From contig CAZCAJ010000023.1 in the NCBI GenBank assembly GCA_964496645.1, forward strand, positions 1 through 54,934: 54,934 bases of DNA, given 5' to 3'. The notes under the pieces were generated by a model. That model saw nothing but the letters and a program-made list of their open reading frames with translations, had not been told where the DNA came from and ran no database searches. Of this stretch, positions 8,636 to 54,934 are shown piece after piece. Each line of letters starts with the position of its first letter. The first letter of the stretch is position 1. Position numbers and translations under genes: made by a program. The stretch comes from an uncultured Opitutaceae bacterium (lineage in GTDB: Bacteria > Verrucomicrobiota > Verrucomicrobiia > Opitutales > Opitutaceae).

Positions 8636-8862
8636 TTGTGCAGTCGCAACTGAGCGGCGCCCCGAGGGGGGGCCGACAGAACGCGAAGTACAGTCAGCGA
8701 ACATCCGGGCATTTCAAGCCATATTCGGACAGATTTTTCGCCTCCAAGCCAAGCGGAGCCGCCCCGTCCGGCCCCGGGGGCGGACGTTCCGGCACCGCCG
8801 GGCCCTCGCCGCGAGTGTTTCGATTTGCGATTGGGGCCGGCCTGGGCGAGCGTTTCCGCCCG

Positions 8863-9345
8863 ATGAATACACGACTTCTTCTCCTCACTGCTGTTGTCTC
8901 AATTGTCGCTTCCGGCTGCGGCCAGAAGGACTCGTCGACGGCGGGCGCGGCGACCCCGGCCGGACCCCGCGAGATAGACATCACGGCGGGAGACACGATG
9001 AAGTACAGCATCACGGCGATAGAGGCCAAGCCGGGCGAGGACATCAAGGTGGTCCTGACGAACACCGGCACGCAGCCGAAGGAGGTCATGGGTCACAACT
9101 GGATCCTCCTGAAGGCGGGTTCCGACGTCGCGGCGTTTGACGCGGCCGCCCTCAACTCTAAGGACACCGGCTACGTCCCCGCCGCGCTCAGCGACGAGAT
9201 CATCGCCCACATCGACCTCCTGGGGCCCCGCAAGTCGGGCGAGATCGAGTTCCAGGCGCCCACGACGCCGGGCGACTACAACTTCCTGTGCACGTTCCCG
9301 GCCCACTACCAGGCGGGGATGAAGGGCGTGCTCACCGTCAAGTGA
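8863..9345 (+). CDS. Azurin-like type-1 (blue) copper protein, lipoprotein
   Basis: Lipobox IVASGC; the azurin signature MGHNW(I/V)L and C-terminal FLCTFPAHYQAGMKGVLTVK match the azurin Cys/His/Met ligand set; divergent from ctaC. Confidence 0.85.
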   Translation: MNTRLLLLTAVVSIVASGCGQKDSSTAGAATPAGPREIDITAGDTMKYSITAIEAKPGEDIKVVLTNTGTQPKEVMGHNWILLKAGSDVAAFDAAALNSKDTGYVPAALSDEIIAHIDLLGPRKSGEIEFQAPTTPGDYNFLCTFPAHYQAGMKGVLTVK

Positions 9346-9444
9346 CGGCCGCCTGCCGGCCCCGGGGCGCGGGCTGAGGGCGCCCCCGTTGGGTCCGAAT
9401 GCCTTTGCCGCCCCGGGGCGGCCGCGTCAGCGTAGGGCGACACC

Positions 9445-9879
9445 ATGAGCTGGGAGAATGAAAGCCACTACGTCAGCACCGATCCCGGGCTCCTCGACCT
9501 CGACTTCGTGTGCGCGGCGCTTGCCGGGTCCTATTGGGCGCAAGACCGCCCCCGCGACGTGATCGCGCGGTCCATCGGGGCCTCGCTCTGTTTCGGGCTC
9601 TACGAGAAGCGGGGCGGCAGACAGGTGGGCTTCGCCCGGGTCGTCACGGACGCCGCGACCTTCTCGTGGCTGTGCGACGTCGTCGTGGACGAGCGCCACA
9701 GGGGCAAGGGCCTCGGCAAGTTCCTGCTGTCGTGCGTGGTCGCCCACCCGCACGTGAGCTCCACCAAGTGCCTCCTAGCCACCCGCGACGCGCACGCCCT
9801 CTACGAGAAGTTCGGCTTCGCCCGGGCCGAGCAGATGAGGCGGCCGCCGACCGAGGCGCGGCCGCAGGCCCGGGCGTAG
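9445..9879 (+). CDS. GNAT family N-acetyltransferase
   Basis: 144 aa; acetyl-CoA binding motif RGKGLGKFLL and a GNAT-fold pattern. Confidence 0.75.
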   Translation: MSWENESHYVSTDPGLLDLDFVCAALAGSYWAQDRPRDVIARSIGASLCFGLYEKRGGRQVGFARVVTDAATFSWLCDVVVDERHRGKGLGKFLLSCVVAHPHVSSTKCLLATRDAHALYEKFGFARAEQMRRPPTEARPQARA

Positions 9880-9886
9880 CCCTTCT

Positions 9887-10321
9887 CTACCCGCGCTGAG
9901 GCCACCACCGGTACAGGAAGAAGTAGACGAGGACGCCCGTCACCGACACGTAGTACCAGATGGGAAACGTGACGCGGGCCCATGCGCGGTGGCGCTCGAA
10001 GTCCCCCTTCAGGGCGAAGACGAACGTCCGGGGCACGAGGAACGCGATGAGCCCGGCCAGCGGGATGTGGGTCCAGAGGATGGCAAGGTACACCCCGCGG
10101 ATGGCGCCGGCCCCGCCGAAGGGCGTGTGGGCCCCCCTCATCATGGCGTGATAGGTGACGTAAAAGACTAGGAACAAAGCGGATGCCACAGCCGCCGCTA
10201 GCATGCATGCGCGGTGGGCCCCGCGGTCGCCCCGCTTGATGAAGACGAATCCGGCCGTTATCAGGATGGTGGCGATCCCGTTCAGCGCGGCCTCGATCGA
10301 GGGAAGGTCGTGCACGTTCAC
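9887..10321 (-). CDS. DUF420 membrane protein (CtaM-like cytochrome oxidase accessory protein)
   Basis: 144 aa with 4 TM helices, about DUF420 length. GTG start at 10321 overlaps the ctaB stop (GTGA). It is the third gene of the ctaA-ctaB unit, the same context as Bacillus CtaM. Confidence 0.6.
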   Translation of the reverse strand: MNVHDLPSIEAALNGIATILITAGFVFIKRGDRGAHRACMLAAAVASALFLVFYVTYHAMMRGAHTPFGGAGAIRGVYLAILWTHIPLAGLIAFLVPRTFVFALKGDFERHRAWARVTFPIWYYVSVTGVLVYFFLYRWWPQRG

Positions 10322-13177: not shown

Positions 13178-14106
13178 CGGACGGCGGGGACACACCGAGA
13201 ATCGGGGCCCGCGAGTGGCGCCAGATCGCCGCGATCACGGCGTCGGCGATCCTGCTATTCCTCGTCGTCCGCGAGCTGCCGACGGGGACCAACCTGAGCC
13301 ACATGGACTTCCGGGTGCAGGGCGCGAACACCATCGAGTTCTGCGACCCGGCCAACCCCCAGTTCCTGCCTGTGGTCGCCGTGCGCTCGCCGGTGTCGCT
13401 CACCGTGTCTACGCCCTCGCCGCCGCGGGCCGGCTCGGAGGTGGCGGCGACCCTGGTCCTCACCACCTTCAGCGGCAAGCCGATCGCGCCGGAGGACCTG
13501 CAGGTGGTCCAGACGAGGCGCGTACACCTCCTGATCGTCGACCCGTCGCTCGACGACTACCAGCACGTGCACCCGGTGCCGGGCCGCAGGCCAGGCGAGT
13601 GGGAATTCAGCTTCCGGCCGCGGTTCGGCGGGGCCTACCGGATCTTTGCGGACTTCACGCCGGTCGCCACGAACCGCGGACTCTACTCGGAGACCGAGAT
13701 GGGCGTAGCCGGGGCGCCCAGCCCGGTGGCCGCGGGATCCCAGCCGCGGTCGTGGGCCTGGGCGGGGGACGGATACCTCCTCGAGCTCTCGCCGGGCGCG
13801 CCGCCGATACGCGCGGGATCACCGGCCGACCTCAGGCTCGTCATCACGGCGACCGGAGGCGGCCCGGTGCCTCTGGAGACCGTCATGGGCGCGTATGCGC
13901 ACCTGGTCGCTTTCGACGCGCAGAGGAGCGGATTCGCGCACATCCACCCGCGGGAGGCCGACGTGACCCGCCGGCCCGATCCCCTGCGCCCGGCCTTCAC
14001 GTTCAGGCTGATGATCCCGCATCCCGGCCGGTACGTCATCTGGAGCGAGGTGAACCTGGCCGGCAAGCTCACCTTCGCCCCCTTCTGGTTCGACGTGAGC
14101 CCGTGA
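13174..14106 (+). CDS. Periplasmic or membrane-anchored protein with two internal repeats carrying H-x-H-P motifs; putative copper-handling protein (YtkA/FixH-like?)
   Basis: GTG start at 13174 overlaps the SCO1 stop (GTGA). N-terminal TM or signal anchor IAAITASAILLFLVV. Two repeats of about 100 aa align to each other (HLLIVDPSLDDYQHVHP...GAYRIFADF versus HLVAFDAQRSGFAHIHP...GRYVIWSEV). No confident family match from memory. Confidence 0.55.
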   Translation: MTDGGDTPRIGAREWRQIAAITASAILLFLVVRELPTGTNLSHMDFRVQGANTIEFCDPANPQFLPVVAVRSPVSLTVSTPSPPRAGSEVAATLVLTTFSGKPIAPEDLQVVQTRRVHLLIVDPSLDDYQHVHPVPGRRPGEWEFSFRPRFGGAYRIFADFTPVATNRGLYSETEMGVAGAPSPVAAGSQPRSWAWAGDGYLLELSPGAPPIRAGSPADLRLVITATGGGPVPLETVMGAYAHLVAFDAQRSGFAHIHPREADVTRRPDPLRPAFTFRLMIPHPGRYVIWSEVNLAGKLTFAPFWFDVSP

Positions 14107-14112
14107 CCCGGA

Positions 14113-14892
14113 TCAGAACTTGAGGTGCTTGACCGTCAGCCCCTTGTTGATGAGCTGGTTCAGGGAGTCGATGCCGATGTTCAGGTGCATGTCGACGAAC
14201 TTCTCCTCGACCCTCATGTCGCTCTCGATCGTCTTCACGCCCTCGGGGACCATCGGCTGGTCCGACACGAGGAGGAGGGCGCCAGTCGGGATCTCGTTTG
14301 CGAAGCCGACGATGAATATAGTCGCCGTCTCCATGTCGACGGCCATGACGCGGATCCTCTTCAGGTACTTCTTGAAGTCGTCGTGGTGCTCCCAGACCCG
14401 CCGATTGGTCGTGTACACCGTGCCCGTCCAGTAATCGAGCGCGCGGTCCCGGATCGTCGTCGAAATCGCCTTCTGGAGCGCGAAGGCGGGGAGGGCGGGG
14501 ACCTCCGGCGGGAAATAGTCGTTGCTCGTGCCCTCGCCGCGGATGGCCGCTATCGGCAGGATCAGGTCGCCGACCTCGGCGCGGTGCTTGATCCCGCCGC
14601 ACTTGCCGAGGAAGAGCGCCGCCTTCGGCCTGATCGCGCTGAGCAGATCCATGACGGTCGCCGCGTTGGCGCTTCCCATCCCGAAATTGATGATCGTGAT
14701 CTTGCCCGCCGTGGCGGTGGGCATCGGCTTCTCCCGGCCGTGGACCTGCACCTTCTGCGCCCTGGCGAACAGGTCCACGTACCGCTGGAAGTTGGTGAGC
14801 AGGATGTACTCGCCGAACCTCTCCAGGGCCACCCCCGTGTAGCGAGGGAGCCAATTCTCGACGATTTCACGGCGTGTCTTCAGGGCGCACAT
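14113..14892 (-). CDS. PNP/UDP-phosphorylase-family protein, short AMP-nucleosidase-like (catalytic domain only)
   Basis: 259 aa. Resembles the C-terminal catalytic domain of AMP nucleosidase (GKCGGIKHRAEVGDLILPIAAIRGEGTS; MAVDMETATIF) and lacks the N-terminal regulatory domain. Confidence 0.7.
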   Translation of the reverse strand: MCALKTRREIVENWLPRYTGVALERFGEYILLTNFQRYVDLFARAQKVQVHGREKPMPTATAGKITIINFGMGSANAATVMDLLSAIRPKAALFLGKCGGIKHRAEVGDLILPIAAIRGEGTSNDYFPPEVPALPAFALQKAISTTIRDRALDYWTGTVYTTNRRVWEHHDDFKKYLKRIRVMAVDMETATIFIVGFANEIPTGALLLVSDQPMVPEGVKTIESDMRVEEKFVDMHLNIGIDSLNQLINKGLTVKHLKF

Positions 14893-42936: not shown

Positions 42937-43944
42937 ATGCCCAAGCGCGGCCAGCACGACGAGGAAAAACCCAAGGCGCTGAGCACCTACACGCTCAAGC
43001 TCGACGACGCACAGATGGAGAGGCTGCGCTCGATCCTGAGCGGTCGCGGCTGGGAGTCGTTTGACGTCGCCTACGCGCGGTACGCCTTCAGGGGGAGGGA
43101 CTGCAACGTCACCGCTTACGAGAGCGGAAAGCTGGTCGTAGCCGGCAAGGGGACGGAGGAGTTCGTGACGATGACGCTCGAGCCCGAGGTCACCAAGAGG
43201 CCGGCGCTCGGGTACGACGAGGTCCACCACCCCGAGTGGTTCGAGCCGCACGCCGGCCTCGACGAGAGCGGCAAGGGCGACCTCTTCGGGCCCGTCGTGG
43301 CCGCTACGGTCATAGCGGACCGGCCGGCGATCGACGGGTGGATCAAGGCGGGCGTCAAGGACTCGAAGCGGATCGCAGAATCCCAGATCATCAAGCTCGA
43401 CAAGCTGATCCGCGCGACCCCCGGGACGGCCGTGGCCACCTGCCTCTGCGGGATGCACCGGTACAACGTCCTCATGCTGCGGCCCCACGCCAACCTGAAC
43501 CGGCTGCTCGCCTGGCAGCACGCGACGGCGCTGTCCCAGGCCCTGTCGAGGAAGAAGGTGCCCTGGGGGCTGCTCGACCAGTTCAGCAAGCAGCCGCTCA
43601 CCCAGCGGGAGCTCTCCAAGATGGGGATCAAGGACTTCGACCTGAGGATGCGCACCAAGGCCGAGGAGGACCCCGTGGTCGCCGCGGCCTCCGTCGTCGC
43701 ACGCGCCGAGTACGTTCGCCAGATGCATTCGCTCTCCAGGCGCTTCGGCGCGACGCTTCAGAAAGGAGCCGGGCCCGTCGCCAAGGAGCAGGCGGCGCAG
43801 GTCATCGCCCGCTTCGGCGCGGGCGCACTGGGCGACTTCGCCAAGCTCCATTTCCGGACGTCCTACGAGGTCGTCCTCGCCGCAGGAAAGCTGGACGAAC
43901 TGCCTCTTCCCGAGCCCAAGGAGCGGGTGGAGTGGCGGGGGTGA
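42937..43944 (+). CDS. rnhC: Ribonuclease HIII
   Basis: N-terminal DUF3378/TBP-like domain, then an RNase HII-fold with the HIII-specific active site GLDESGKGDLFGP; 335 aa; divergent from mutY with a 30-bp gap. Confidence 0.8.
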   Translation: MPKRGQHDEEKPKALSTYTLKLDDAQMERLRSILSGRGWESFDVAYARYAFRGRDCNVTAYESGKLVVAGKGTEEFVTMTLEPEVTKRPALGYDEVHHPEWFEPHAGLDESGKGDLFGPVVAATVIADRPAIDGWIKAGVKDSKRIAESQIIKLDKLIRATPGTAVATCLCGMHRYNVLMLRPHANLNRLLAWQHATALSQALSRKKVPWGLLDQFSKQPLTQRELSKMGIKDFDLRMRTKAEEDPVVAAASVVARAEYVRQMHSLSRRFGATLQKGAGPVAKEQAAQVIARFGAGALGDFAKLHFRTSYEVVLAAGKLDELPLPEPKERVEWRG

Positions 43945-43966
43945 GGGGGAGGCGCGCGTTTGCCCG

Positions 43967-44728
43967 ATGCCGAAACGCCGACAGCTGCGCAGCTTCGACC
44001 TGAAGAAGATTGAGGGTTTCGAGAGCCTGATCGGCGTGGACGAGGTCGGCCGCGGAGCGCTCGCTGGCCCCGTCGTCGCCGGCGCCGTCCTGGTGACGCG
44101 CGATTTCCTCGAGGGCCGCTGGGCCGTGTACAAGTCCGGGCGCGTCAACGACTCGAAGCAGCTCTCCGCCCCGGAGCGCGAGGCGCTCTGGGGCGAGTTC
44201 GAGGCGCTCGCGACCCAGGGGCAGATCCACGCCCACTACGGCTCGGCGAGCGTTGAGGAGATCGAGCAGCACAACATCCTCGGCGCGACCAAGCTGGCGA
44301 TGCGCCGGGCGATGGAGGGCATCTACCCGGTCGCCGCCTTCCGGCGCAGGGACGAGCCGGACCTGTTCTCCTCGGTCGAGGAGAGGGAGTCGTTCGTCCC
44401 GGCCGTCTCCTGCCGCGTGCTGGTCGACGGGCTGCCGCTCAGGGGGTTCCCGTACCCCCACACGGCCGTCGTCAGGGGCGACTCGCGGTCGCTCTGCGTC
44501 GCGATGGCGTCGATCATCGCCAAGGTGGTGCGGGACCGGATGATGGCGGAGCTTGACGCGGCGTACCCCGGGTACGGGTTCGGCAGGCACAAGGGATACG
44601 GGACCGACGACCACCGCGAGGCGGTGATGAGGCTGGGGCGCAGCCCCATCCACCGGGAGGTCTTCCTGCGCAAGCTGCTCGCCCAGCGGGTGGATCCGGA
44701 CCAGATGGATTTTCTTCCCGGCCGTTGA
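43967..44728 (+). CDS. rnhB: Ribonuclease HII
   Basis: GVDEVGRGALAGPVVAGAV active site and the DSK motif; 253 aa; lies 22 nt after rnhC. Confidence 0.88.
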   Translation: MPKRRQLRSFDLKKIEGFESLIGVDEVGRGALAGPVVAGAVLVTRDFLEGRWAVYKSGRVNDSKQLSAPEREALWGEFEALATQGQIHAHYGSASVEEIEQHNILGATKLAMRRAMEGIYPVAAFRRRDEPDLFSSVEERESFVPAVSCRVLVDGLPLRGFPYPHTAVVRGDSRSLCVAMASIIAKVVRDRMMAELDAAYPGYGFGRHKGYGTDDHREAVMRLGRSPIHREVFLRKLLAQRVDPDQMDFLPGR

Positions 44729-44751
44729 CCCCCGGGGCCGCGCGGGCAAGA

Positions 44752-45924
44752 ATGGCGGTCATGGCCGGAAAGAAACACACCTCGCTCGACCGCGTGCTGG
44801 GGCGGCTCGACAGCCTCGACTCCGTCGGCCTGACAAACCTCGTCCAGCGCCTGGCGAGGGAGCGCACCCTCCTCGAGGAGATCTTCAACACGCTCCAGGA
44901 GGGGGTCCTCGTGATAGCCGCTGACGGGACGATCGAGTACGCGAACGACGCGGCCCACCGCCTCATGGGGTTGGACGGCGACCGGCTCGCCGGGCAGACG
45001 CTCTGGCGGCTCGTCCCCGGGCTGCGGTCCTCGCTCGGCGGGGACGGGAGCGCCGGCGTCCAGGCGGTCTCGCGCGAGTTCGAGCTTTCGTACCCCGAGC
45101 CGCGCACGGTCAGGTTCTACATGGTCGCGCTGCGCGAGGAGGGAGGCGGGGCGCGCCGACGCGCGGTGATCCTCGCCGACGTCACCCCGGAGAAGCTGGC
45201 GACCGCCAGGCGCATAGAGGACGAGCGCACCTCGTCGATCCTCCTGCTTGCCGGCGGCGTGGCGCACGAGCTAGGCAACCCGCTCAATTCGCTCGGGATC
45301 CACCTTCAGCTGATCGCCCGCAAGCTGAAGCGGTTCAAGGGCAGCGCGCAGGTCGACTCGATCGCGGAGTCGGTCGGCGTATGCCGCGAGGAGGTCGGGC
45401 GCCTCGACCAGATCGTCACCAATTTTCTCGAGGCGGTCCGCCCTCGCCCCCCGGACCTGGCGGAGACGAACGTGGCGGACGTCCTGGCCGAGGTCCTCAG
45501 GTTCCAGAAGCGCGAGTTCGCCAATCGGGGGATAGCCGTGGAAGCCGAGACGCAGGCCTCGCTCCCGAAGGTGTTGGCCGACCGCGGCCAGCTCAAGCAG
45601 GTGTTCTTCAACCTGACGAAGAACGCGATGGAGGCGATGCAGCCCGGGGGCAGGCTAAGGATCAGGTCGCGCGCGGACGACGACTCGGTCTACCTCGTCT
45701 TCGGCGACAGCGGCGCCGGGATACGCGAGGAGGACATGGGCAAGCTTTTCCGGCCGTACCACACGACGAAGCCCGGGGGCCACGGGCTCGGGCTGACGAT
45801 CGTCCAGCGGATCATGCGCGCGCACGGCGGCCAGGTGGGCGTGGAGAGCAGCGAGGGGATCGGCACGGTCGTCACGCTCCAGTTCCCCCGCAAGGACCGG
45901 AGCGTGCGGATGCTGCGGGGCTGA
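44752..45924 (+). CDS. Cytoplasmic sensor histidine kinase (PAS - HisKA - HATPase_c), NtrB/AtoS-like
   Basis: No TM segments; PAS region (EEIFNTLQEGVLVIAADGTIEYAN); H-box HELGNPLNS; N-box FFNLTKNAMEAM; G-boxes DSGAGI and GGHGLGL. First ATG at 44752; an in-frame TTG at 44725 overlaps the rnhB stop. Confidence 0.8.
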   Translation: MAVMAGKKHTSLDRVLGRLDSLDSVGLTNLVQRLARERTLLEEIFNTLQEGVLVIAADGTIEYANDAAHRLMGLDGDRLAGQTLWRLVPGLRSSLGGDGSAGVQAVSREFELSYPEPRTVRFYMVALREEGGGARRRAVILADVTPEKLATARRIEDERTSSILLLAGGVAHELGNPLNSLGIHLQLIARKLKRFKGSAQVDSIAESVGVCREEVGRLDQIVTNFLEAVRPRPPDLAETNVADVLAEVLRFQKREFANRGIAVEAETQASLPKVLADRGQLKQVFFNLTKNAMEAMQPGGRLRIRSRADDDSVYLVFGDSGAGIREEDMGKLFRPYHTTKPGGHGLGLTIVQRIMRAHGGQVGVESSEGIGTVVTLQFPRKDRSVRMLRG

Positions 45925-45932
45925 CGGGCCGG

Positions 45933-46547
45933 CTACGGGGCAGCGGCCTTGGGGCTCCCGGAATCGGTGGGGACGTCCCTGACCGAGATCGTGCGGGACT
46001 CGCTGGACTTGCCCAGCTGGAGCCTGACCTTGAACGGAATCTCGTCGGAGCTGACGCCGAGCTGCGAGACCATGGGAGTCGGCTCGGCCGACCGGCCGGG
46101 CGGGATCGTGACCGTGTCGGGATCGACGACGAAGTTCCCGAGATCCGAGTCGAAGTCGAGTATCTTGACCGAGATCTCGTCGGGGCCGGTGTTCGTGAGG
46201 ATCAGGTGCAGGGTGACGGGGGGCAGCGGGCTCCCGAGGGTCTGCTTGACGTCGCTGTTCGCATAGGCGGCGTACGCGCTCTTGTCGGCGGAGGCGCCGC
46301 GTCCGCCTTCGCCGCCCTTTCCCTGCTTGAGGCCGTGGCCCACCCCGCGGCTCACCGTGATCTTTGATGCCACCATGCCTCCGAAGAAGGAGCCGGTCCC
46401 GGCCATGGCCACGGGCCGCTCGCCTGAAATGACCCCCTTTGTCATCTCGTCATTGTCCTTGGAGGCGCAGCCGGAAGCCAGGAGGAGCGCCGCGAGGCAA
46501 GCCGCCGGAGATATGGTTAAGTAATGGCCAGTGTACATCTTATGCAT
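45933..46547 (-). CDS. Lipoprotein of unknown function (Gly-rich N-terminal region, C-terminal beta-rich domain)
   Basis: Signal MHKMYTGHYLTISPAACLAALLLASGCAS (lipobox); about 204 aa; convergent with the kinase gene with an 8-nt gap. Confidence 0.55.
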   Translation of the reverse strand: MHKMYTGHYLTISPAACLAALLLASGCASKDNDEMTKGVISGERPVAMAGTGSFFGGMVASKITVSRGVGHGLKQGKGGEGGRGASADKSAYAAYANSDVKQTLGSPLPPVTLHLILTNTGPDEISVKILDFDSDLGNFVVDPDTVTIPPGRSAEPTPMVSQLGVSSDEIPFKVRLQLGKSSESRTISVRDVPTDSGSPKAAAP

Positions 46548-46705
46548 GTTTGATGCGCGCCTGCGCGGCCGGTCCCGCCGCAATCGAACGGGGTGGACAC
46601 GCGGGTCGACGGAAGGTTGCATGGGGCGTGCTCTTGCGCCAATGGTAAAAGCGCATCTTTCCGACCCGATCTACGTCTGGTCGGTCATAGAGCAATGGCA
46701 AACGC

Positions 46706-47251
46706 ATGGATGAAAGTTCACCGACCACGCTGGGTGCCCGGGTTCGCCGGGCGCAGCGCGGGGACGAGGCCGCACTGCGCGAGCTCATTGTGTCCTACCA
46801 GCACCGCGTTGCCGGGTTCACCTACGCCATCACCGGGAGGAGCGACTCCGTCGAGGACCTCGTCCAGATGGTGTTCGTCAAGGTGGCGCGCTCCATCGCC
46901 CGGCTCAAGGCGCCCGACCAGTTCGAGCCGTGGCTCTTCCGGCTCGCCCGCAACACCTGCATCGACCACCTGCGGCGGCAGAAGCTGCGCCGGATCTTCA
47001 TCCCCTTCGCTCCCGAGCACGAGAACGTGCCCGAGCCTGCCGGGGCCGTCGACGCGGAGGAGCTCGACGCGCTCCGGCACGCGCTCGCCCAGCTCCGGCC
47101 CAAGGACCGCGCGCTCGTCGCGCTGGTTCAGGAGGGCCGCAGCCACGCCGAGATCGCCGAGAGCTTCAACACGAGCGTCGCTGCCGTGAAGGCTCGCCTC
47201 CACCGCGCGCGCGAACAACTTAGACAACACTACCAAAGCGATGAGAACTGA
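46706..47251 (+). CDS. ECF-subfamily RNA polymerase sigma-70 factor
   Basis: Sigma-70 region 2 (LVQMVFVKVARSIARL...FEPWLFRLARNTCIDHLRR) and region 4 (HAEIAESFNTSVAAVKARLHRAR); 181 aa. Confidence 0.88.
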   Translation: MDESSPTTLGARVRRAQRGDEAALRELIVSYQHRVAGFTYAITGRSDSVEDLVQMVFVKVARSIARLKAPDQFEPWLFRLARNTCIDHLRRQKLRRIFIPFAPEHENVPEPAGAVDAEELDALRHALAQLRPKDRALVALVQEGRSHAEIAESFNTSVAAVKARLHRAREQLRQHYQSDEN

Positions 47252-47513
47252 GAAACAAACATGGGCGCTCCTTCGCGAGCACGCGGCGGCCCAGATTACG
47301 CCCGGATTCCCCGAACGGGTCCTCAAGGCGGCTCGCGCCGCGGCCTCGCCGCTGTTCATCACCCACTTCGCAATGTGCGCTGCGACGGCTGCGGCGTGCC
47401 TCGTCGCCGTGGCGCTCTACCACGCGCGCATCTCCGGGGACGAGGACACCCAGAGCGTCGCGGGCTGGGGCGAGATCGTCGCGCAGGCGAACGACTTCGA
47501 GCAGGGCCTATGA
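47241..47513 (+). CDS. Putative anti-sigma factor (small single-pass membrane protein)
   Basis: 90 aa; overlaps the sigma gene by 11 nt; one TM helix FAMCAATAAACLVAVALY; the position is typical of ECF anti-sigma factors. Confidence 0.6.
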   Translation: MRTEKQTWALLREHAAAQITPGFPERVLKAARAAASPLFITHFAMCAATAAACLVAVALYHARISGDEDTQSVAGWGEIVAQANDFEQGL

Positions 47514-48157
47514 GGGACCGCGTCCTCGCAGCGCTCCTGACCGCGCTCGTGTTCGGGATCGGGTTCGGCGCGGGGATGTGGGCCGAGCGTCACCGGCCTT
47601 TCCCTCCCCCGCCGGGGCCGTTCATGGGTGAATTCGACGCCAGGCACGGCTGGGTCGCGCGCGCCACGCCTCCCATCAACCGCGCCCAGTTGATGGAGCA
47701 GATCGACGCGATACGGCCGCAGATGGAGGCCTTCAGGACGCGGGTCGGCGAGATCTACGCCGAGTTCGACCGCGACATCGCGACGGTGCTGACGCCGGAG
47801 CAGCGCGAGGAGTACGAGCGCCGGTTCCGGTCGCAGCGCGGGCTCCTGGGCCCCGCCGAGTCGCCCGCGCCCGACAAGCCCTTGTCAGACGAGCAGATCG
47901 AACGGCTTCTGCAGCGGCCGTTCCGCACGCTGGCCTTCTTTGTCGTCCTGCCGATGACGCTCGACCGGATGACGAGCGAGCTCAAGCTGGACGAGGCACA
48001 GCGCGGCAAGGTGAACGACCTCCTGCACGTGCGCAGGGAGAAGTTCATCGAGCTCGTGGACAACTCCCCGCCGCTGAGCCTGATGCTTAGCCGGCTGGCG
48101 CCGATTGCGCAGCGCCTGGCGGAGCCGGGCAAGGCCGGCGGCGCGCCCGCGCACTAG
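47510..48157 (+). CDS. Periplasmic LTXXQ-motif protein (Spy/CpxP/ZraP-family-like chaperone)
   Basis: ATGA overlap with the anti-sigma stop; N-terminal signal/TM; two LTXXQ-type motifs (LTPEQREEYERRF; LDEAQRGKVNDLL); 215 aa. Confidence 0.65.
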   Translation: MRDRVLAALLTALVFGIGFGAGMWAERHRPFPPPPGPFMGEFDARHGWVARATPPINRAQLMEQIDAIRPQMEAFRTRVGEIYAEFDRDIATVLTPEQREEYERRFRSQRGLLGPAESPAPDKPLSDEQIERLLQRPFRTLAFFVVLPMTLDRMTSELKLDEAQRGKVNDLLHVRREKFIELVDNSPPLSLMLSRLAPIAQRLAEPGKAGGAPAH

Positions 48158-48212
48158 GCGTACGCGCTTGCACGGGGCTTGACCGCCGGGGCGTGTCGCT
48201 TGGAATGGCGGC

Positions 48213-49592
48213 ATGGTCCCAAGCGTGCTCATCGTCGACGACGAGAAACACACCCGCGAGGGCCTTCAGCAGGCGCTCGCGGAGAACTACGACGTGAGCG
48301 TGGCCGCGAACGCCGACGAGGCGTTCAACCTGATGGACGCGCAGCCCTTCGACGTCATCCTCACGGACCTTAGGATGCCCGGGAAATCCGGCCTGAGGGT
48401 GATCGACCGCGCGCTCGCCCTGCCGAACAAGCCGGCCGTCCTGATGATGACGGCCTACGGGAACATCGACACGGCAGTGGAGGCGATGAGGAGGGGGGCG
48501 GTGGACTTCCTCACGAAGCCGGTCAACATCGAGCGTCTTGACGTGCTCATCCGCCGGGCGCTGAAGACGAAGACCCTCGAGGTGGAGGTCAAGCAGCTCC
48601 ACGAGCGCCTGGACGAGAAGTTCGACCTCGAGGGGATCGTCGGGAACTCGCCGCTCCTCAAGGACGTGGTCGAGACCGCGAAGAAGGTCGCGCAGTCGAA
48701 GGCCACGGTCCTCATCGAGGGCGAGTCGGGCACGGGCAAGGAGCTGATCGCCCAGGCGATCCACCAGTCGAGCCCGCGCTCCAGGGGGCCCTTCGTCGCC
48801 GTCCACTGCGCGGCGCTTTCCGAGAGCCTGCTCGAGAGCGAGCTCTTCGGGCACGAGAAGGGCTCGTTCACGGGCGCCACGGAGCGCCGCATCGGGAGGT
48901 TCGAGTCCGCGGACGGCGGGACGCTTTTCCTTGACGAGATCGGCGAGGTCTCCCCGGCGATCCAGGTCAAGCTGCTGCGGTTTCTGGAGACCAAGTCGAT
49001 CGAGCGGGTGGGGGGCTCTAAGACGCTGACCCTGGACGTGCGCCTGGTGACGGCGAGCAACCGGAGCCTGGAGCAGCTGGTTCGCGAGGGCAAATTCCGA
49101 GAGGACCTGTTCTTCCGCCTGGACGTCGTGCGCTTCGTCATGCCGCCTCTGCGCCAGAGGAGGGAGGACATCCCGGAGCTCCTCGCCCATTTCATTAGGC
49201 TTTTCTCGGAGGAGAACGGAGTCCCCCCGATCGAGATCGAGCCGGGGGCGATGAAGACGCTCCAGACCTACCCCTGGCCCGGGAACGTCCGCGAGCTGCG
49301 CAACTTCTGCGAGAACGCGGTCGTGCTCCGCAAGGGGGGAAAGCTGACCGAGTTCGACCTCGATCCCCGGTTCCGCGGGGCGCCCGGCTCGGCTCCGTCG
49401 GCGGGCGGAACGGCGGATGCCGGCTCGGCGTCGACCCTTTCGGTGGAGCAGAACGAGAAGCGCATCCTAAGGGAGGCGCTCATCAAGTCGCGCGGCAACC
49501 GGACCAAGGCCGCGGAGATGATGGGCATTAGCCGGCGGACGCTCCACCGCAAGCTGGCCCAGTGGCCCGAGCTCGATGTGACCGATAAATGA
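48213..49592 (+). CDS. Sigma-54-dependent two-component response regulator (NtrC family: REC - AAA+ - HTH)
   Basis: REC domain with the conserved Asp; Walker A GESGTGKE; the sigma-54 contact motif (ESELFGHEKGSFTGA, GAFTGA-type); C-terminal Fis-type HTH; 459 aa. Confidence 0.92.
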   Translation: MVPSVLIVDDEKHTREGLQQALAENYDVSVAANADEAFNLMDAQPFDVILTDLRMPGKSGLRVIDRALALPNKPAVLMMTAYGNIDTAVEAMRRGAVDFLTKPVNIERLDVLIRRALKTKTLEVEVKQLHERLDEKFDLEGIVGNSPLLKDVVETAKKVAQSKATVLIEGESGTGKELIAQAIHQSSPRSRGPFVAVHCAALSESLLESELFGHEKGSFTGATERRIGRFESADGGTLFLDEIGEVSPAIQVKLLRFLETKSIERVGGSKTLTLDVRLVTASNRSLEQLVREGKFREDLFFRLDVVRFVMPPLRQRREDIPELLAHFIRLFSEENGVPPIEIEPGAMKTLQTYPWPGNVRELRNFCENAVVLRKGGKLTEFDLDPRFRGAPGSAPSAGGTADAGSASTLSVEQNEKRILREALIKSRGNRTKAAEMMGISRRTLHRKLAQWPELDVTDK

Positions 49593-51382
49593 CGGCCCGC
49601 CCGCGCACCACGCAGGAGCTGATCCACTGGCTCGAGATGGGCGGGGGCGCGCGGTGGGTGCGGATGGGGGCGCTCGTGGTCTGCGGGCTCGTAGTCTCGA
49701 GCCTGGTCTCCTGGCGCCAGTTCCACGGCGCGACGAGCGAGGCTACGCTGGCGCAGGCCGACATGGGCAGGCAGATTGCGTTCGGCCGGGGGTTCACGAC
49801 CCGGGTCAACTACCCGCAGGCGGTCGCGTTCTTCGCGGCCCGGGGGATCCGCTTTGACCCCTCCCGCCCCTATCCGGAGGTGTACCAGGCGCCGCTCTAC
49901 CCGATGGTAATCGCGGGCGCGCTGCGACTCCTGCCCCACGCGGTGCGCGAGGGGCTCTTCGGGTCGGCCCCCACGCCCCCGTTCGGTTTTGGCGCCGACT
50001 ACCTGCTCCTCGGGCTGAACGTCGTCCTCTTCTGGCTCGCGGTCTGGCTCGCGTTCGACCTCGGCCGGCGCCTCTTCGGGGCGCCCGCCGGCTGGCTGGC
50101 GGCGATCGCCCTGTTCGTCTCGGTGCCGGTCTGGCAGCAGGTCGTCTCGGTCGACGGCGCGGCGCTCATGATGGTGCTCGGCCTGGGCGCGTTCGAGGCG
50201 TGGTGGGGGGCGGAGTCGGCGGGGGACCTCCGGCGCGCCGCCATCCCGCTCGGGGCCCTCGGCGCCCTGTGCGGCGCCCTCTTCCTTGCCGAGTACTGCG
50301 CGGGGGCCCTGGTTGTCGCCGTGGTGGCTGGCGTGTGGCGGCGGTTCCCGGGCGCGGCGAGGTGGCGCGCTCTCGCGCTGGTCATTTGCGGCTTCACCCT
50401 GGTCGCCGGGCCCTGGGTCGCGCGCAACATGGCCGTCACTGGGATGCCGGTCGGCCTCGCTTCCCAGAACATCGCGCTAAAGGCGGGCGACTCCACCGCC
50501 GAGCCCTCGATCGTCCGCGCGACGCTCTCGGCGCAGATTCCAGCGATCGACCTGAACAAGCTCTCCAACAAGTTCCTGACTTCGATACAGGAGAACCTGC
50601 GGTCGCGGGTGTGGTCGGGCGGCGCGCTGTGGTTCCTTGGGCTCTTCGCGGCGGGCTGGCTGTACGCCTTCCGGTCGGAGTCCGTCAACCGCGTCCGCTG
50701 GCATTTCACGGTCTCGCTCGGGGTCCTCATAGCGGCGCAGGCGGCCTTCAACTCCGGCGAGAGCGAGCGCCAGGCGGTCGTTTGGCTATCGCCCCTCATC
50801 ATCGTATTCGGGGCCGGCTTCTTCTTCGTCCTCCTCTCGAGCAACCCCGTGCTCGCGGCGTGGCCGAGGGCCTGCGCCGCGGCGCTGCTCGCCCTCCAGG
50901 CGCTCCCGCTCGTTCACGACGCGCTCAACCCGCACTGGCTCCACTTCGAGTATCCGCCGTATTTCCCGGGCCTCCTTCAGGGCATGGGCAAGCAGCTCGA
51001 CGCCTCCGACCCGACCGGCCGCTTCGGGCTCATGGCGGACGTGCCGGCGGGGCTTGCCTGGTACGGCGGGACGAGGGCCTGGGCGCAGCCCGCGACGCTC
51101 CGCGACTTCTATGCCGTGCAGGACGACCAGCTGACCGGCGAGCTTCTGCTCACGCCCAGGACCCTGGACCGCCCGTTCTTCTCGGATCTGAACGCCCGGC
51201 CCAAGTCCCCCGGGCTCCTTTCGGCCTCCACCCAGGGGACCGGCGAGTGGGGCGAGGTGTACGGGGGCCTGCTCACGGGCGCCATGCCGCGCGATTTCCC
51301 GCTGACGGTGCCCCAGAAGCTTGCGGAGAATCTCTACGTCCTCATAAACCCCGCGCTTCCTGCTGCGCCTCCCAGGCGGTAG
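49589..51382 (+). CDS. Large polytopic membrane protein (about 12 TM helices plus a C-terminal periplasmic domain), putative GT-C-type glycosyltransferase (ArnT/PMT-like) or O-antigen-polymerase-like
   Basis: ATGA overlap with the response-regulator stop; 597 aa; the first periplasmic loop (SEATLAQADMGRQIAFGRGF) is reminiscent of GT39/GT83 loop-1; no exosortase CSG motif. Confidence 0.6.
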   Translation: MTARPRTTQELIHWLEMGGGARWVRMGALVVCGLVVSSLVSWRQFHGATSEATLAQADMGRQIAFGRGFTTRVNYPQAVAFFAARGIRFDPSRPYPEVYQAPLYPMVIAGALRLLPHAVREGLFGSAPTPPFGFGADYLLLGLNVVLFWLAVWLAFDLGRRLFGAPAGWLAAIALFVSVPVWQQVVSVDGAALMMVLGLGAFEAWWGAESAGDLRRAAIPLGALGALCGALFLAEYCAGALVVAVVAGVWRRFPGAARWRALALVICGFTLVAGPWVARNMAVTGMPVGLASQNIALKAGDSTAEPSIVRATLSAQIPAIDLNKLSNKFLTSIQENLRSRVWSGGALWFLGLFAAGWLYAFRSESVNRVRWHFTVSLGVLIAAQAAFNSGESERQAVVWLSPLIIVFGAGFFFVLLSSNPVLAAWPRACAAALLALQALPLVHDALNPHWLHFEYPPYFPGLLQGMGKQLDASDPTGRFGLMADVPAGLAWYGGTRAWAQPATLRDFYAVQDDQLTGELLLTPRTLDRPFFSDLNARPKSPGLLSASTQGTGEWGEVYGGLLTGAMPRDFPLTVPQKLAENLYVLINPALPAAPPRR

Positions 51383-51453
51383 GCCACCCCCGGAATGGTC
51401 TTGCCAGCGGAGTTCGAATTGCCAGCTTGGCGGTCGCCTCTGACCAGCGCCAC

Positions 51454-52632
51454 ATGAGACAATTGCGAATCATTCTCGTGGGTTCGTCGCTAGGCATCTG
51501 CGCGACCGCGCGCGCCGTGTTCGCGCCGATTCCGGAGGAGGAGAAGGGCAAGGGCCTGACGATCTCGCTCGAGAGCGGGATCACATACAACAACAACATC
51601 TTCGGCTCCGCGACGGACGCGATCGGCAGCGCCGTGTTCGAGGTGTCGCCCAGGATCGCCTTCAACTCGTCCCTCTCGGAGCAGTCCTTTTTCTCCGCGT
51701 CCTTCGAGCCCAGGCTCGACTATTTCGAGGACCGGCCCGGCTCGAAGACCCTCTACAGCCAGGACCTGGACGCGCGGCTCGCGCACTCCTTCTCACAGAC
51801 CTCGGTCCTGGACCTGAACGACGCCTATTCCTACGACCAGAACCCCGAGGCTCTGCTGTCCGGCGTTCCGGTGAACACCAACCAGACCCTCGAGAGCAAC
51901 CAGTTCAACGGCAAGTTCACGTTCTCGCCGGTCGAGAGGCTCAGCATGGCCCTGAAGACGCGCGTCATGTACTTCGACTACATCGACCCGGTGATCGGGG
52001 ACGAGCTCAACCGATTCGAGAACCTGTACGGACTGGAGTACGACTACTCCCTTCTCCCGAACCTCGCGCTTGCGGGCGAGTACCGGCACCTGGACGTCGA
52101 CTACAGGGACGACCCGGCGGAAAACGACAAGCATTCCGACTTCCTGATGGCGGGATTCGACTACAAGCCGGGCCCGAAGGTGACCGCGAGCCTGCGCGTG
52201 GGCGGCGAATACACCCGGCGCGACGGCCTGTCGGACGAGACGACGCCCTTCGTTGAGTTCGCGGCGAAGTACGAGTACGCTCAGGGGTCGTTCATCAGCG
52301 CGGGCTACACCTACGACCTGGAGGAGACATCCAATCCGGTGCTGTTCTCCGACCAGAGGACGAACCGGATGTTCGTGAACCTCCAGCATGCGATAACCGC
52401 CTTCGTCGTCGCCTCGGCGTCCGTCCAGTACGCCCCGGCGACGCTCGTCGGCCGGTCCGGGCAGGCGGACATCGAGGAGGACTCGACCCTCGCGGGCCTG
52501 GCCCTCACCTACCTGCCGAACAAGAACTGGAAGATCACCGCCTCCTACGACTACCAATTTGTCGATTCAGGAATCTCGTCGCGCGGGATGAATAGGTCCG
52601 TGACAGGCCTGAGCGCCACCGTTATCTTCTGA
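51454..52632 (+). CDS. Outer-membrane beta-barrel protein, exopolysaccharide-locus associated (PEP-CTERM/EPS-associated OMP-like)
   Basis: Signal peptide MRQLRIILVGSSLGICATARAVFA; alternating amphipathic beta strands rich in Y/D/F; C-terminal aromatic residue (…SATVIF), the beta-barrel signature; 392 aa. Confidence 0.65.
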   Translation: MRQLRIILVGSSLGICATARAVFAPIPEEEKGKGLTISLESGITYNNNIFGSATDAIGSAVFEVSPRIAFNSSLSEQSFFSASFEPRLDYFEDRPGSKTLYSQDLDARLAHSFSQTSVLDLNDAYSYDQNPEALLSGVPVNTNQTLESNQFNGKFTFSPVERLSMALKTRVMYFDYIDPVIGDELNRFENLYGLEYDYSLLPNLALAGEYRHLDVDYRDDPAENDKHSDFLMAGFDYKPGPKVTASLRVGGEYTRRDGLSDETTPFVEFAAKYEYAQGSFISAGYTYDLEETSNPVLFSDQRTNRMFVNLQHAITAFVVASASVQYAPATLVGRSGQADIEEDSTLAGLALTYLPNKNWKITASYDYQFVDSGISSRGMNRSVTGLSATVIF

Positions 52633-52679
52633 CACCGTTGGCCCGAGTCGCCCGCACCGTGGCGATTCCAAAAGAACCC

Positions 52680-54833
52680 ATGGCATCGTCTTCCGGCTCA
52701 AAGGAGAGCGCTTCCCTTGCCGACCTGTTCAGGGTCCTTAGGATGCGCTGGGTCCTGATCGCGCTCGTCATGGGGCTCGTCATCGCGACCACGCTGGTGG
52801 TGACCGCGCTGCTCCCCCAATGGTACCTCGCGACGGCCAAGGTGAGGGTGGAGAAGCCCGAGGGGGAGGTGAAGCTCTTCCAGGCGCAGAGCACCAGCGC
52901 CTACGACCCGTACTTCCTTCAGGACCAGTTCAGGATCATGCAGGACGAGAAGATCCTCTACCCTGTGATCGAGCACCTTGGCCTCAATACGAAGCTCGCG
53001 GCCGCCATGGGGGCGCCCGGCGCGACGCTCACCTCCGACATCACGTACCGGTTCCTCGTGAACAAGATGCTCAGGGTGGAGTCCCAGAGGAGCTCGTCGC
53101 TGATAGAGATAAACGTGTACGCCCAGCAGCCTGCGCTCGCCGCGGACATCGCCAACGAGGTCGCGCGCGTGTACTCGGACGACCGCATCGCGCTCGCCAC
53201 GTCGCAGCAGCGGGAGGGCCTGGTCCAGCTGCAGAAGGAGCTCGAACAGCAGGAGGGCGAGGTCACGAGGCAGCGCGACGTCGTCGAGAGGCTCCGCAAG
53301 GACCTCAACATATCCGGGGTCGACCTCAACGCGAAGTACTCGGACATGGAGATCGAGACGCTGCGCCAGATGCAGAACTCCCTCATCGCGCTCAGGGTCG
53401 ACGCGATCGGCCGGAAGACGCGCTGGGAGAGGTTCAAGAGCATCCCGATCGAGGAGCGGATGGGCCTCGTGAACTCCGAGCTGATCCCGGACCAGAACAT
53501 CCAAAACCTCCTCCAGGCCTACCTCATCGCCGACCAGAAGGTCACCCAGCTCAAGGGCCGCCTGGGCGAGGCGCATCCCGACCTCGTCTCGGCGATCGAC
53601 AACCGCGCCAAGATGAAGGAGCAGCTCGAGTCCCTCCTGCGCGGGTACGAGAGCGGCCTGGAGATCGCCTACAAGGAGGCCGAGGCGCGTGTCGAGGAGC
53701 TTGAGAGCCAGCTCGCGAAGGCCAAGGTCGACCAGATCCTGTCGGCGCGCGACAGGATGCGGCCCTTCGAGGAGGCGGCCCAGAAGCTGGACGACGAGAC
53801 GAGGCTGTACACGACGCTCAAGCTGACCCTTCGCCAGCGCGAAATCGACTTCCAGGTGCCGAAGCGCACGATCGAGATCCTGAACACGGCCGAGCCCGCC
53901 CGCCGGCCCAGCCGCCCGAACTGGATACTGAACATCGCGAGCGCCATCGTCTTCGGGGCCATGCTCTCGGTCGGCGTCGCGCTCACGCTCGAGTACTTCG
54001 ACATGAGCCTGCGCGACGTCGCGGACATTGAGGAGAAGCTCAAAGTCCCGGTGCTCGGAGTGATCCCGCACCTCCACGACCCCATGGGCGCGCAGAAGGA
54101 CGACCCCGGCGAGGCGGAGCCGTATCGCGTGCTCCACACGAACATCAACCTGGCGCTCAAGCCCGGCCAGCCCGCGGTCATCATCGTCTTCTCGGCGGGG
54201 CCCGCGGAGGGCAAGAGCACGACCATCTGCAGGCTCTCCCACCTGATGGGCGCGTTCGGCGAGCGCACGCTCCTCATTGACGGGGACCTGCGCAGGCCCG
54301 CGCAGCATCATCTCGCCGGCTGCCCGAGGGCGCCCGGGCTCAGCGATGTGCTCGCGGGCAAGTGCGCCGTCGAGGCGGCCATCCGAGGCTCCGTCTCGCC
54401 CGGCGTCGACCTCCTGACGAGCGGGGGCGTGCCCGGGTTCTCCCTTGGCCTGCTCCATGCAAACCGTCTGCGCGAGCTGGTCGCCTCGCTCCGGGCCCGC
54501 TATGACCGGATCATGATCGATTCGCCGCCGATAATCGGCGTGAGCGACTCGAGCCTCCTGGCTGGAGTCGCGGACGGCGCGATCCTCCTCATCCAGCACC
54601 GGCGGAACCCCGCGAGCATGGTCCTCAGGGCGCAGCAGACGATCGTGGGGCTCAAGGTTCCGATCCTGGGCGCCGTTCTGACCCAGGTGCCGAGGGGCTC
54701 CGGCGAGGACTACGGTTACTATACCCGGGCCTACTCGTACTATTCGGGCCGGCCGGCGGGCGGGTCCGGTGATGCCGCCACACCGCGTGGCGGCGAAGCG
54801 GGGTCCGGGCCCGACAAGCTGGTCCTGAAATGA
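52680..54833 (+). CDS. Fused polysaccharide co-polymerase (Wzz/GumC-type chain-length determinant) and BY-kinase (Wzc/EpsB-like tyrosine autokinase)
   Basis: TM1, a long periplasmic coiled-coil domain, then TM2; cytoplasmic P-loop with Walker A GPAEGKST, Walker A' DGDLRRP, Walker B IMIDSPP; C-terminal Tyr cluster EDYGYYTRAYSYYSG. Confidence 0.85.
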   Translation: MASSSGSKESASLADLFRVLRMRWVLIALVMGLVIATTLVVTALLPQWYLATAKVRVEKPEGEVKLFQAQSTSAYDPYFLQDQFRIMQDEKILYPVIEHLGLNTKLAAAMGAPGATLTSDITYRFLVNKMLRVESQRSSSLIEINVYAQQPALAADIANEVARVYSDDRIALATSQQREGLVQLQKELEQQEGEVTRQRDVVERLRKDLNISGVDLNAKYSDMEIETLRQMQNSLIALRVDAIGRKTRWERFKSIPIEERMGLVNSELIPDQNIQNLLQAYLIADQKVTQLKGRLGEAHPDLVSAIDNRAKMKEQLESLLRGYESGLEIAYKEAEARVEELESQLAKAKVDQILSARDRMRPFEEAAQKLDDETRLYTTLKLTLRQREIDFQVPKRTIEILNTAEPARRPSRPNWILNIASAIVFGAMLSVGVALTLEYFDMSLRDVADIEEKLKVPVLGVIPHLHDPMGAQKDDPGEAEPYRVLHTNINLALKPGQPAVIIVFSAGPAEGKSTTICRLSHLMGAFGERTLLIDGDLRRPAQHHLAGCPRAPGLSDVLAGKCAVEAAIRGSVSPGVDLLTSGGVPGFSLGLLHANRLRELVASLRARYDRIMIDSPPIIGVSDSSLLAGVADGAILLIQHRRNPASMVLRAQQTIVGLKVPILGAVLTQVPRGSGEDYGYYTRAYSYYSGRPAGGSGDAATPRGGEAGSGPDKLVLK

Positions 54834-54879
54834 TGTTGACGGCGGGGTGGGGCGGGTAGTCTCATCCGACCCCTAATCC

Positions 54880-54934
<55 letters not shown>

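Follow-up and report, generated by a model that had tools for sequence, protein, structure and literature searches.

A sigma-54-type response regulator and a predicted GT-C glycosyltransferase are the invariant pair of a gene cassette in Verrucomicrobiota

The 54,934-nt stretch of DNA analyzed here (contig CAZCAJ010000023.1 of an uncultured Opitutaceae bacterium; the window) encodes four consecutive proteins on the plus strand: a sigma-54-type response regulator, a membrane protein with a predicted GT-C glycosyltransferase fold, an outer-membrane beta-barrel, and a Wzc-like co-polymerase fused to a BY-kinase. The regulator and the GT-C protein are the sole invariant unit of this cassette, and the window region is best explained as the form that a Verrucomicrobiota-wide conserved cassette takes in Opitutaceae. 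The role that we tentatively favor for the GT-C protein, with somewhat less than even confidence, is that of a periplasmic-face enzyme that is co-expressed with its two-component system and acts on a surface polysaccharide that the cell exports. The occurrence of sigma-54 activators near genes for envelope polysaccharides is already established (PMC3162934, PMC1569441). The proteins of the cassette all belong to known families, but literature searches found no description of the conserved gene combination.

Gene neighborhoods were compared in 80 loci from Opitutales species genomes and 80 distant-clade loci from metagenomes, plus single look-ups. Neighboring genes were placed by tblastn, and denominators differ from one neighbor count to the next. 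In the distant clade, most of the Wzc-containing loci that are long enough have a short OPX gene and an FHA gene after Wzc. In 68/68 Opitutales and 50/51 distant loci, the gene immediately preceding GT-C is that of the regulator. The regulator-effector coupling that a sequence-only reading of this DNA had pointed out is therefore real and far more general than the window. In the window, the GT-C ATG overlaps the regulator TGA as ATGA (49589-49592). This overlap recurs in 29 Opitutales loci, and 63 of 77 distant loci have an overlap or a gap of at most 20 nt between the two genes. The barrel gene directly follows GT-C in 76/77 Opitutales and 25/56 distant loci, and Wzc follows the barrel in 59/61 and 16/36, respectively. 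A PAS kinase gene is found no more than 6 kb upstream in 47/65 Opitutales and 30/44 distant loci. The order GT-C, barrel, Wzc, short OPX, FHA protein also occurs in lineages whose GT-C proteins are ~25 to 30% identical. The genes beyond Wzc and upstream of the kinase vary even among close relatives, so the block appears to be held together while its surroundings rearrange. With a G+C content at third codon positions of 0.92 to 0.93 in the frames of the four-gene block (window G+C, ~68%) and a gene order that recurs in ~80 Opitutales species genomes, the four open reading frames (ORFs) are far beyond chance. They stand on the plus strand as the sequence-only reading described them, and its finer details hold as well: the ATGA overlap, a barrel that has a signal peptide and ends in Phe, and a Wzc with Walker and Tyr motifs.

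The regulator gene (48213-49592, plus strand) encodes a 459-aa response regulator of the AtoC/NtrC class with the Pfam domains Response_reg, Sigma54_activat (E value of 1.7e-70), AAA_lid_14, and HTH_8, a Fis-type helix-turn-helix. None of the named regulators is matched at equivalog level, the NCBIfam scores being below cut-off for AtoC (507 versus 714, the best match), NtrC (428 versus 559), and TIGR02915/PrsR (395.8 versus 502.6). The window protein has GSFTGA at residue 217 and a phospho-acceptor Asp at position 52. Among orthologs, GAFTGA or GSFTGA is found in 140 matches and Asp occupies position 52 in 129/129. The A-to-S variant of the GAFTGA loop is functional in LevR (PMC3162934). With this loop and the invariant Asp52, the regulator is a genuine sigma-54 activator. 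A shorter regulator (435 aa, 8626-9933) is called on metagenome contig L001, the GT-C protein of which is 100% identical to that of the window. It is without the HTH_8 domain and the ATGA overlap, probably through a frameshift or assembly error near the 3' end.

The GT-C gene (49589-51382, plus strand) encodes a 597-aa protein. AlphaFold gave a poor model (pLDDT of 67) from 33 close sequences and a much better one (pLDDT of 93.9, pTM of 0.93) from 57 diverse sequences. The sequence-only reading had described a GT-C-like protein with about 12 transmembrane helices and a periplasmic C-terminal domain. The model supports the GT-C likeness and the C-terminal domain, which is alpha/beta and begins at about residue 455, but the helix list has ~13 transmembrane helices. 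In structural comparison the model scored highest with ALG12 (23.4) and ArnT (22.2), followed by AglB (19.6), Pmt2 (19.2), Pmt4 (18.4), STT3B (18.2), AftB (16.9), and PglB (16.7), and Foldseek with the weaker model had already pointed to GT-C enzymes. The likeness to solved GT-C enzymes extends across the transmembrane core, as expected of the superfamily, and the protein is accordingly modeled as having a GT-C fold of the ArnT/PMT-like kind.

Several GT-C residues are conserved throughout the family: E51, R61, the motif P-[DE]-x(3,4)-P-P-[LV]-Y-P with its acidic position 97, D/E137, R279, K328, and D484 in the C-terminal domain. The motif and the last four of these residues are kept down to 24% identity. 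E51, the Glu just after TM1 in the first periplasmic loop, is kept in both clades, within "SEATL" in one and "QEAMD" in the other. This pattern is consistent with an active enzyme in which E51 may be catalytic, and the conserved residues may correspond to the catalytic and phosphate-binding residues of ArnT. Homologs are numerous, with hundreds of full-length proteins and 717 clusters at 50% identity (E value up to 1e-3); the protein names on the closest matches are those of an Opitutaceae bacterium of the phylum Verrucomicrobiota. Distant orthologs (25 to 30% identity) match PF13231 (PMT_2) and, weakly, PF02366 (PMT). The ortholog P0196 reaches 35.6 versus a PF13231 threshold of 26.1, and the domain is present in most members of its clade. 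Names given to orthologs in the source annotation are "glycosyltransferase family 39 protein" and "ArnT family glycosyltransferase" (PGAP, distant orthologs) and "4-amino-4-deoxy-L-arabinose transferase-like." No NCBIfam ArnT model matched the window protein at E values up to 0.01, its sole match being LIC_10190_fam (18.1 bits versus 100), and the ortholog in distant locus L090 had no NCBIfam match. A GT-C profile searched against PDB sequences found a single match, TMEM260, at an E value of 0.019.

The nearest histidine kinase is encoded 2.3 kb upstream of the regulator (44761-45924, plus strand; ORF open from 44725, gene-caller start at 44752). It is a PAS_4, HisKA, and HATPase_c protein with no transmembrane segment visible in its sequence and is thus predicted to be soluble. 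Over its full length, including a distinctive N-terminal helix, it is 39% identical to the regulator-adjoining kinases of L090 and L092 (E values of 1e-95 and 2e-97), and the regulators are 53% identical. In L090, L092, and L093, the kinase gene directly adjoins or overlaps the regulator gene. The window kinase is predicted to be the cognate kinase of the regulator because it is an ortholog of kinases that adjoin the regulator in distant relatives. The sequence-only reading was thus right that no kinase gene adjoins the regulator, but the kinase upstream is not a stranger to it. In most Opitutales, the two genes appear to have been separated by an inserted extracytoplasmic function (ECF) sigma factor module.

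Upstream of the regulator, a sigma-70-like promoter for the regulator/GT-C operon is predicted at 48179-48206 (plus strand; TTGACC-N16-TGGAAT, 6 nt before the ATG). A layout of GGGCTTGACC, 16 to 18 nt, an A/T-rich hexamer, and 6 to 7 nt to the ATG is found in nearly all Opitutales loci and would imply a leaderless transcript. A simple consensus scan misses this promoter, whose -10 hexamer has G at position 2. The consensus scan placed a leaderless-type, sigma-70-like kinase promoter at 44725-44753 (plus strand; TTGACC-N17-AAGAAT, 7 nt before the ATG at 44761), and its GTTGACC box and the MAGKK start codon at 44761 are conserved in most Opitutales loci. The kinase and regulator promoters are alike in design (GTTGACC, 16 to 17 nt, xxGAAT, 6 to 7 nt to the ATG), and they possibly share control.

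The barrel and Wzc genes are preceded by a conserved intergenic element (51392-51436, plus strand), which in most Opitutales loci begins 54 to 58 nt ahead of the barrel start codon. We read it as a sigma-70-like promoter, TTGCCA (51401-51406)-N16-CAGCTT (51423-51428), in which the -10 assignment for the window's own clade is weak. Most other Opitutales have TTGCTT-N17/18-TAnnnT before the barrel gene, and the distant clade has TTGACA-N17-TAAAAA, which is close to a perfect consensus, with an A/T-rich stretch upstream. Two other readings of the element were rejected. A GG-N10-GC sigma-54 fit (GGGGAAAGTAATTGCTT) is present in most Opitutales, but it was dropped because the variants TTGATT, TTGATA, and TTGTCT lose the GC while keeping the TTG, with TAnnnT at 17 to 18 nt. 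A hairpin or inverted repeat, TGCCA-N14-TGGCA, is not conserved, the second arm in the window being a direct repeat. In the distant clade, two conserved motifs, CACTTTTCAA and GTTCTTGGGCGAAA, lie past the promoter in the 5' leader of the barrel gene (9830-9930 in L090 and its equivalents), and the second motif resembles GGTCTTGCCAG of the window's own clade. This leader matches nothing in Rfam and contains no conserved hairpin.

The sequence-only reading had expected sigma-54 promoters upstream of 48213 and 51454. None was found, and conserved sigma-70-like promoters occupy these places instead. A scan of the window for TGGCAC-N5-TTGC with up to two mismatches gave 28 matches versus 42 expected by chance, none of them convincing near either position. 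A strict scan (GG and GC fixed, at least 10/11) found no syntenic site in ~75 Opitutales loci, and its recurrent matches in ~84 distant loci lie inside coding sequence. As the regulator is a genuine sigma-54 activator and the cassette has no sigma-54 promoter, the targets of the regulator are probably elsewhere in the genome. A near-palindrome, TGGCACCGCTGGTGCA, occurs twice upstream of the regulator in one Opitutaceae chromosome (L032, ~5630-5910), the copies being 278 bp apart, at distances of 2373 and 2095 nt from the GT-C start codon. It might be an activator binding site.

The barrel gene (51454-52632, plus strand) encodes a 392-aa protein that has a signal peptide, begins MRQLRIILVGSSLGICATARA, and reads ...ATVIF at its C terminus. 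Its full-length match to BBP2_2 (PF10082) scores 32.3 bits versus a cut-off of 23.7, and a crude alternation score counts ~18 to 20 amphipathic segments. All 99 distinct barrel orthologs have a signal-peptide-like N terminus, and most end in Phe or Tyr. The mature N terminus is conserved as AVYAPIPEQEQGK in Opitutales or as a related YAP(A/G) motif. The window and L090 barrels are 26% identical over their full length. The Wzc-like gene (52680-54833, plus strand) encodes a 717-aa PCP-2a co-polymerase fused to a BY-kinase. Its ORF opens at 52638, and the ATG at 52680 was taken as the start from gene callers and orthologs. The protein has Wzz, GNVR, and AAA_31 domains and just passes TIGR01007 (109 versus a cut-off of 108.05), but it is not an equivalog of Escherichia coli Wzc (PRK11519, 100.6 versus 1068). 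Its translation contains Walker A (SAGPAEGKST), Walker A' (LLIDGDLRRP), and Walker B (IMIDSPP) motifs and a C-terminal cluster of six Tyr residues, DYGYYTRAYSYYS.

We propose that the barrel and Wzc are the outer- and inner-membrane ends of a Wzc/short-OPX/beta-barrel polysaccharide export route. Short OPX and FHA genes that follow Wzc in many distant relatives support the export role already suggested by the sequence-only reading. In Myxococcus, short OPX proteins form no pore through the outer membrane and act together with Wzc and an 18-stranded barrel (PMC9601211, PMC9603273, PMC12819527). Wzc, a barrel, and a short OPX are likewise encoded together in distant loci. The short OPX proteins of the distant clade are ~200 aa long with Poly_export and SLBB domains only, and an FHA protein is usually encoded next to them. 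A short OPX gene lies downstream in 13/29 distant loci versus 0/55 Opitutales loci, and the window contains no OPX gene. In Horticoccus (L072) and in locus L060, a short lipoprotein OPX (227 aa, C-terminal Phe) is encoded ~2.5 kb upstream of the regulator. Opitutales keep the barrel and Wzc beside GT-C, presumably with the OPX encoded elsewhere in the genome. Beside the short OPX gene, L072 (4085-4957, minus strand) and L060 also encode a 290-aa protein with no family match, the C-terminal half of which is extremely acidic and rich in Asp, Glu, and Lys.

Among the closest known counterparts of this arrangement are the EpsX-EpsY-EpsV and WzpB-WzaB-WzcB translocons of Myxococcus xanthus (PMC9601211, PMC9603273, PMC12819527). 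As in these systems, the barrel gene stands beside that of a PCP-2a Wzc, a short OPX gene follows Wzc in distant relatives, and the Horticoccus OPX is a lipoprotein that ends in Phe. The window barrel belongs to PF10082 and is a candidate counterpart of the EpsX/WzpX porins. Unlike the M. xanthus translocons, the window has no adjacent gene for an OPX, Wzx, Wzy, priming transferase, or cytoplasmic glycosyltransferase, and the GT-C gene is in their place. The M. xanthus eps locus also contains an NtrC-type activator, EpsI/Nla24.

An exported polysaccharide is favored as the target of the GT-C enzyme because GT-C, barrel, and Wzc keep their order between deeply diverged lineages even as the genes on either side change. 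The regulator and GT-C would be transcribed from the sigma-70-like promoter that abuts the regulator start codon, and a separate sigma-70-like promoter would drive the barrel and Wzc. On the periplasmic side, GT-C would draw a sugar from a polyprenyl-phosphate carrier and add it to the surface polysaccharide handled by Wzc and the barrel. The two-component system would be co-expressed with GT-C and would activate sigma-54 promoters elsewhere rather than the two promoters of the cassette.

Several observations weigh against this proposal. About half of the distant lineages have the regulator/GT-C pair without neighboring export genes, and what follows the pair there is a set of genes unrelated to one another (UvrC, a GT9 heptosyltransferase-like protein, DUF5069, MBOAT, LuxCE, Nuo, and Sua5). 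In L032, the pair is followed by PNPase, with no barrel or Wzc gene after GT-C. A generic GT39 enzyme found away from exopolysaccharide (EPS) genes would have counted against the export module of the sequence-only reading; the distant lineages bear this out in part, yet the regulator still accompanies the enzyme (50/51). The window and 6 kb beyond it contain no gene for an OPX, flippase, Wzy, priming transferase, or polyprenyl-phosphate sugar synthase. The window GT-C protein matches no Pfam GT-C model, even at E values up to 1, and a barrel profile finds nothing meaningful among PDB sequences. The analysis shows the gene anatomy, the fold, the family memberships, the synteny counts, and the lack of sigma-54 promoters. 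The promoter assignments are consensus readings, and promoter function, the donor, the acceptor, and the regulon are inferred.

The main rival, which we consider possible but clearly less probable, is an ArnT-like modification of lipopolysaccharide (LPS), in which GT-C, as an output tied to its two-component system, decorates lipid A or the LPS core with a sugar taken from polyprenyl phosphate and the barrel and Wzc do a separate job. The ArnT-type source names of orthologs and the topology of the protein point this way, as do the GT9 heptosyltransferase-like gene after GT-C in L093, a CorA gene before the kinase in many distant loci, and the distant lineages in which the pair occurs without export genes. 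ArnT (GT83) of the Enterobacteria, which is controlled by PmrAB and PhoPQ, offers a parallel for an envelope glycosyltransferase tied to two-component signaling. Here, however, the ArnT models found no match, the regulator is a sigma-54 activator instead of an OmpR type, and the enzyme would be co-transcribed with its regulator rather than being its target. No arnBCA-like genes for donor synthesis are nearby, and export genes follow instead. The near-universal adjacency of barrel and Wzc in Opitutales, and the same order at deep divergence, also argue against a purely LPS-directed role.

Protein O-glycosylation is unlikely. It would have GT-C mannosylate or otherwise glycosylate periplasmic or outer-membrane proteins, as PMT, TMEM260, and bacterial PMT_2 enzymes do, and it draws on the PF13231 and weak PF02366 matches of distant orthologs, on TMEM260 as the only PDB sequence match, and on the PGAP name "glycosyltransferase family 39 protein." These matches are weak, however, and limited to the common GT-C core. 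The protein has no MIR or TPR acceptor-binding domain, its C-terminal domain has no family match, and no conserved candidate substrate gene adjoins it, with the possible exception of the barrel.

We regard as rather improbable a reading in which GT-C is itself the polymerase of a minimal, previously undescribed Wzx/Wzy-free route to surface polysaccharide, co-inherited with a dedicated kinase and regulator. Polyprenyl-phosphate monosaccharides would be joined into a polymer at the periplasmic face, in the manner of the mycobacterial Emb and Aft enzymes, and passed to Wzc, a short OPX, and the barrel. Polymerizing GT-C enzymes are represented by mycobacterial EmbA/B/C and AftA-D, which are much further from the window protein in structure score than ALG12 and ArnT, belong to another envelope type, and are without Wzc or beta-barrel partners.

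Very unlikely, in our estimate, is that GT-C serves as a membrane co-sensor through which the soluble PAS kinase would register the state of the envelope, such as whether lipid-linked sugar or acceptor is available. The apparent lack of transmembrane segments in the kinase, the invariance of the regulator/GT-C pair, and its sigma-70-like rather than sigma-54 promoter fit such a role, which would explain why GT-C is always co-expressed with the regulator instead of standing behind a sigma-54 promoter. Nevertheless, catalytic-type residues are conserved, which suggests an active enzyme, there is no sign of contact between kinase and GT-C, and the kinase is not in the neighborhood in about one-third of loci.

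The sequence-only reading had likened the region to PEP-CTERM/XrtA EPS loci (PrsK-PrsR, TIGR03007, TIGR03016, TIGR03018, TIGR03027; PMC1569441), in which a PrsR-type regulator would drive the downstream genes through sigma-54 promoters. The cast is alike in outline: a kinase, a sigma-54 regulator, a chain-length determinant with a tyrosine kinase, an outer-membrane protein, and a short export protein. TIGR02915 is the third-best model for the window regulator and the second-best in L090, both below threshold; the distant OPX proteins match best to TIGR03027 (74 bits versus a cut-off of 180); and the barrel has faint matches to TIGR03016 (19.1 versus 90.85) and EpsL. This reading is largely refuted, since all five TIGR models are far below cut-off (TIGR02915 and TIGR03016, as given above; TIGR03007, 49.3 versus 278.85; TIGR03018, 71.5 versus 230.65; TIGR02916, 89.2 versus 300), no exosortase or PEP-CTERM protein is encoded in the 54.9-kb window or 6 kb beyond it, and no sigma-54 promoter precedes either unit or recurs at a syntenic position in ~160 loci, the TTGATT and TTGATA variants before the barrel gene breaking the GC essential for sigma-54 while keeping the TTG of a -35 box. 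To our knowledge, a GT-C protein is not part of the PEP-CTERM/XrtA system.

The module between kinase and regulator in the window (45933-48157) comprises four genes. An ECF sigma factor (46706-47251, plus strand; Sigma70_r2 and Sigma70_r4_2; TIGR02937, 100 versus 42.9) overlaps the gene of a 90-aa protein (47241-47513, plus strand), a putative anti-sigma factor by position only, which has no family match and is conserved with the ECF gene. The third gene (47510-48157, plus strand), also conserved with the ECF gene, encodes a 215-aa protein with a weak LTXXQ (CpxP/Spy-like) match that is below threshold (PF07813, 19.9 versus 24.3). On the opposite strand, 45933-46547 is called as a 204-aa protein, with an ORF extending to 46622. 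It has no Pfam or NCBIfam match, occurs together with the ECF module, and is probably a lipoprotein as read from ...LLLASGCAS. The module is found in most Opitutales loci but not in some Opitutales or in the distant loci for which gene tables were examined. It looks like an envelope-stress module put into a two-component operon.

Two tandem genes directly before the kinase (42937-44728) encode an RNase HIII-like protein (DUF3378 and RNase_HII) and RNase HII, and the opposite strand carries mutY. Many Opitutales loci preserve this synteny, and the RNase HII stop codon falls inside the kinase -35 box. In many distant, Pedosphaerales-type loci, the gene just before kinase-regulator-GT-C encodes a CorA magnesium channel (4127-5338 in L090 and in many of L092-L170), a position that may point to some connection of the cassette with divalent cations. 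Downstream, a tRNA gene (54880-54934; RF00005, 36.6 bits) starts 47 nt past the Wzc stop, is cut by the window end, and marks the downstream edge of the conserved block. It was the only hit in an Rfam scan of 44000-54934 and the L090 leader. In L072, a phage-type integrase (13465-14769, minus strand) lies just beyond Wzc. The remaining window genes are housekeeping genes (cytochrome oxidase, LysRS, a Lol-type ABC system, LpxB, HemA, DnaE, a Band_7 protein, S21, MutY, and RNase HII/HIII), and the window has no cytoplasmic glycosyltransferase gene.

Soil, peat, freshwater, and the gut all harbor abundant Verrucomicrobiota, the envelope glycobiology of which is almost unstudied. The cassette described here appears to be a phylum-wide, tightly conserved link between a signaling pair and a periplasmic-face glycosyltransferase, joined in many lineages by export parts. 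It may be a case of a GT-C enzyme in the place usually held by Wzy-type machinery beside Wzc. It also cautions against reading direct sigma-54 control of EPS-type genes into the presence of a sigma-54 activator gene nearby. For cultured Opitutaceae, it offers a concrete four-to-five-gene target for genetics.

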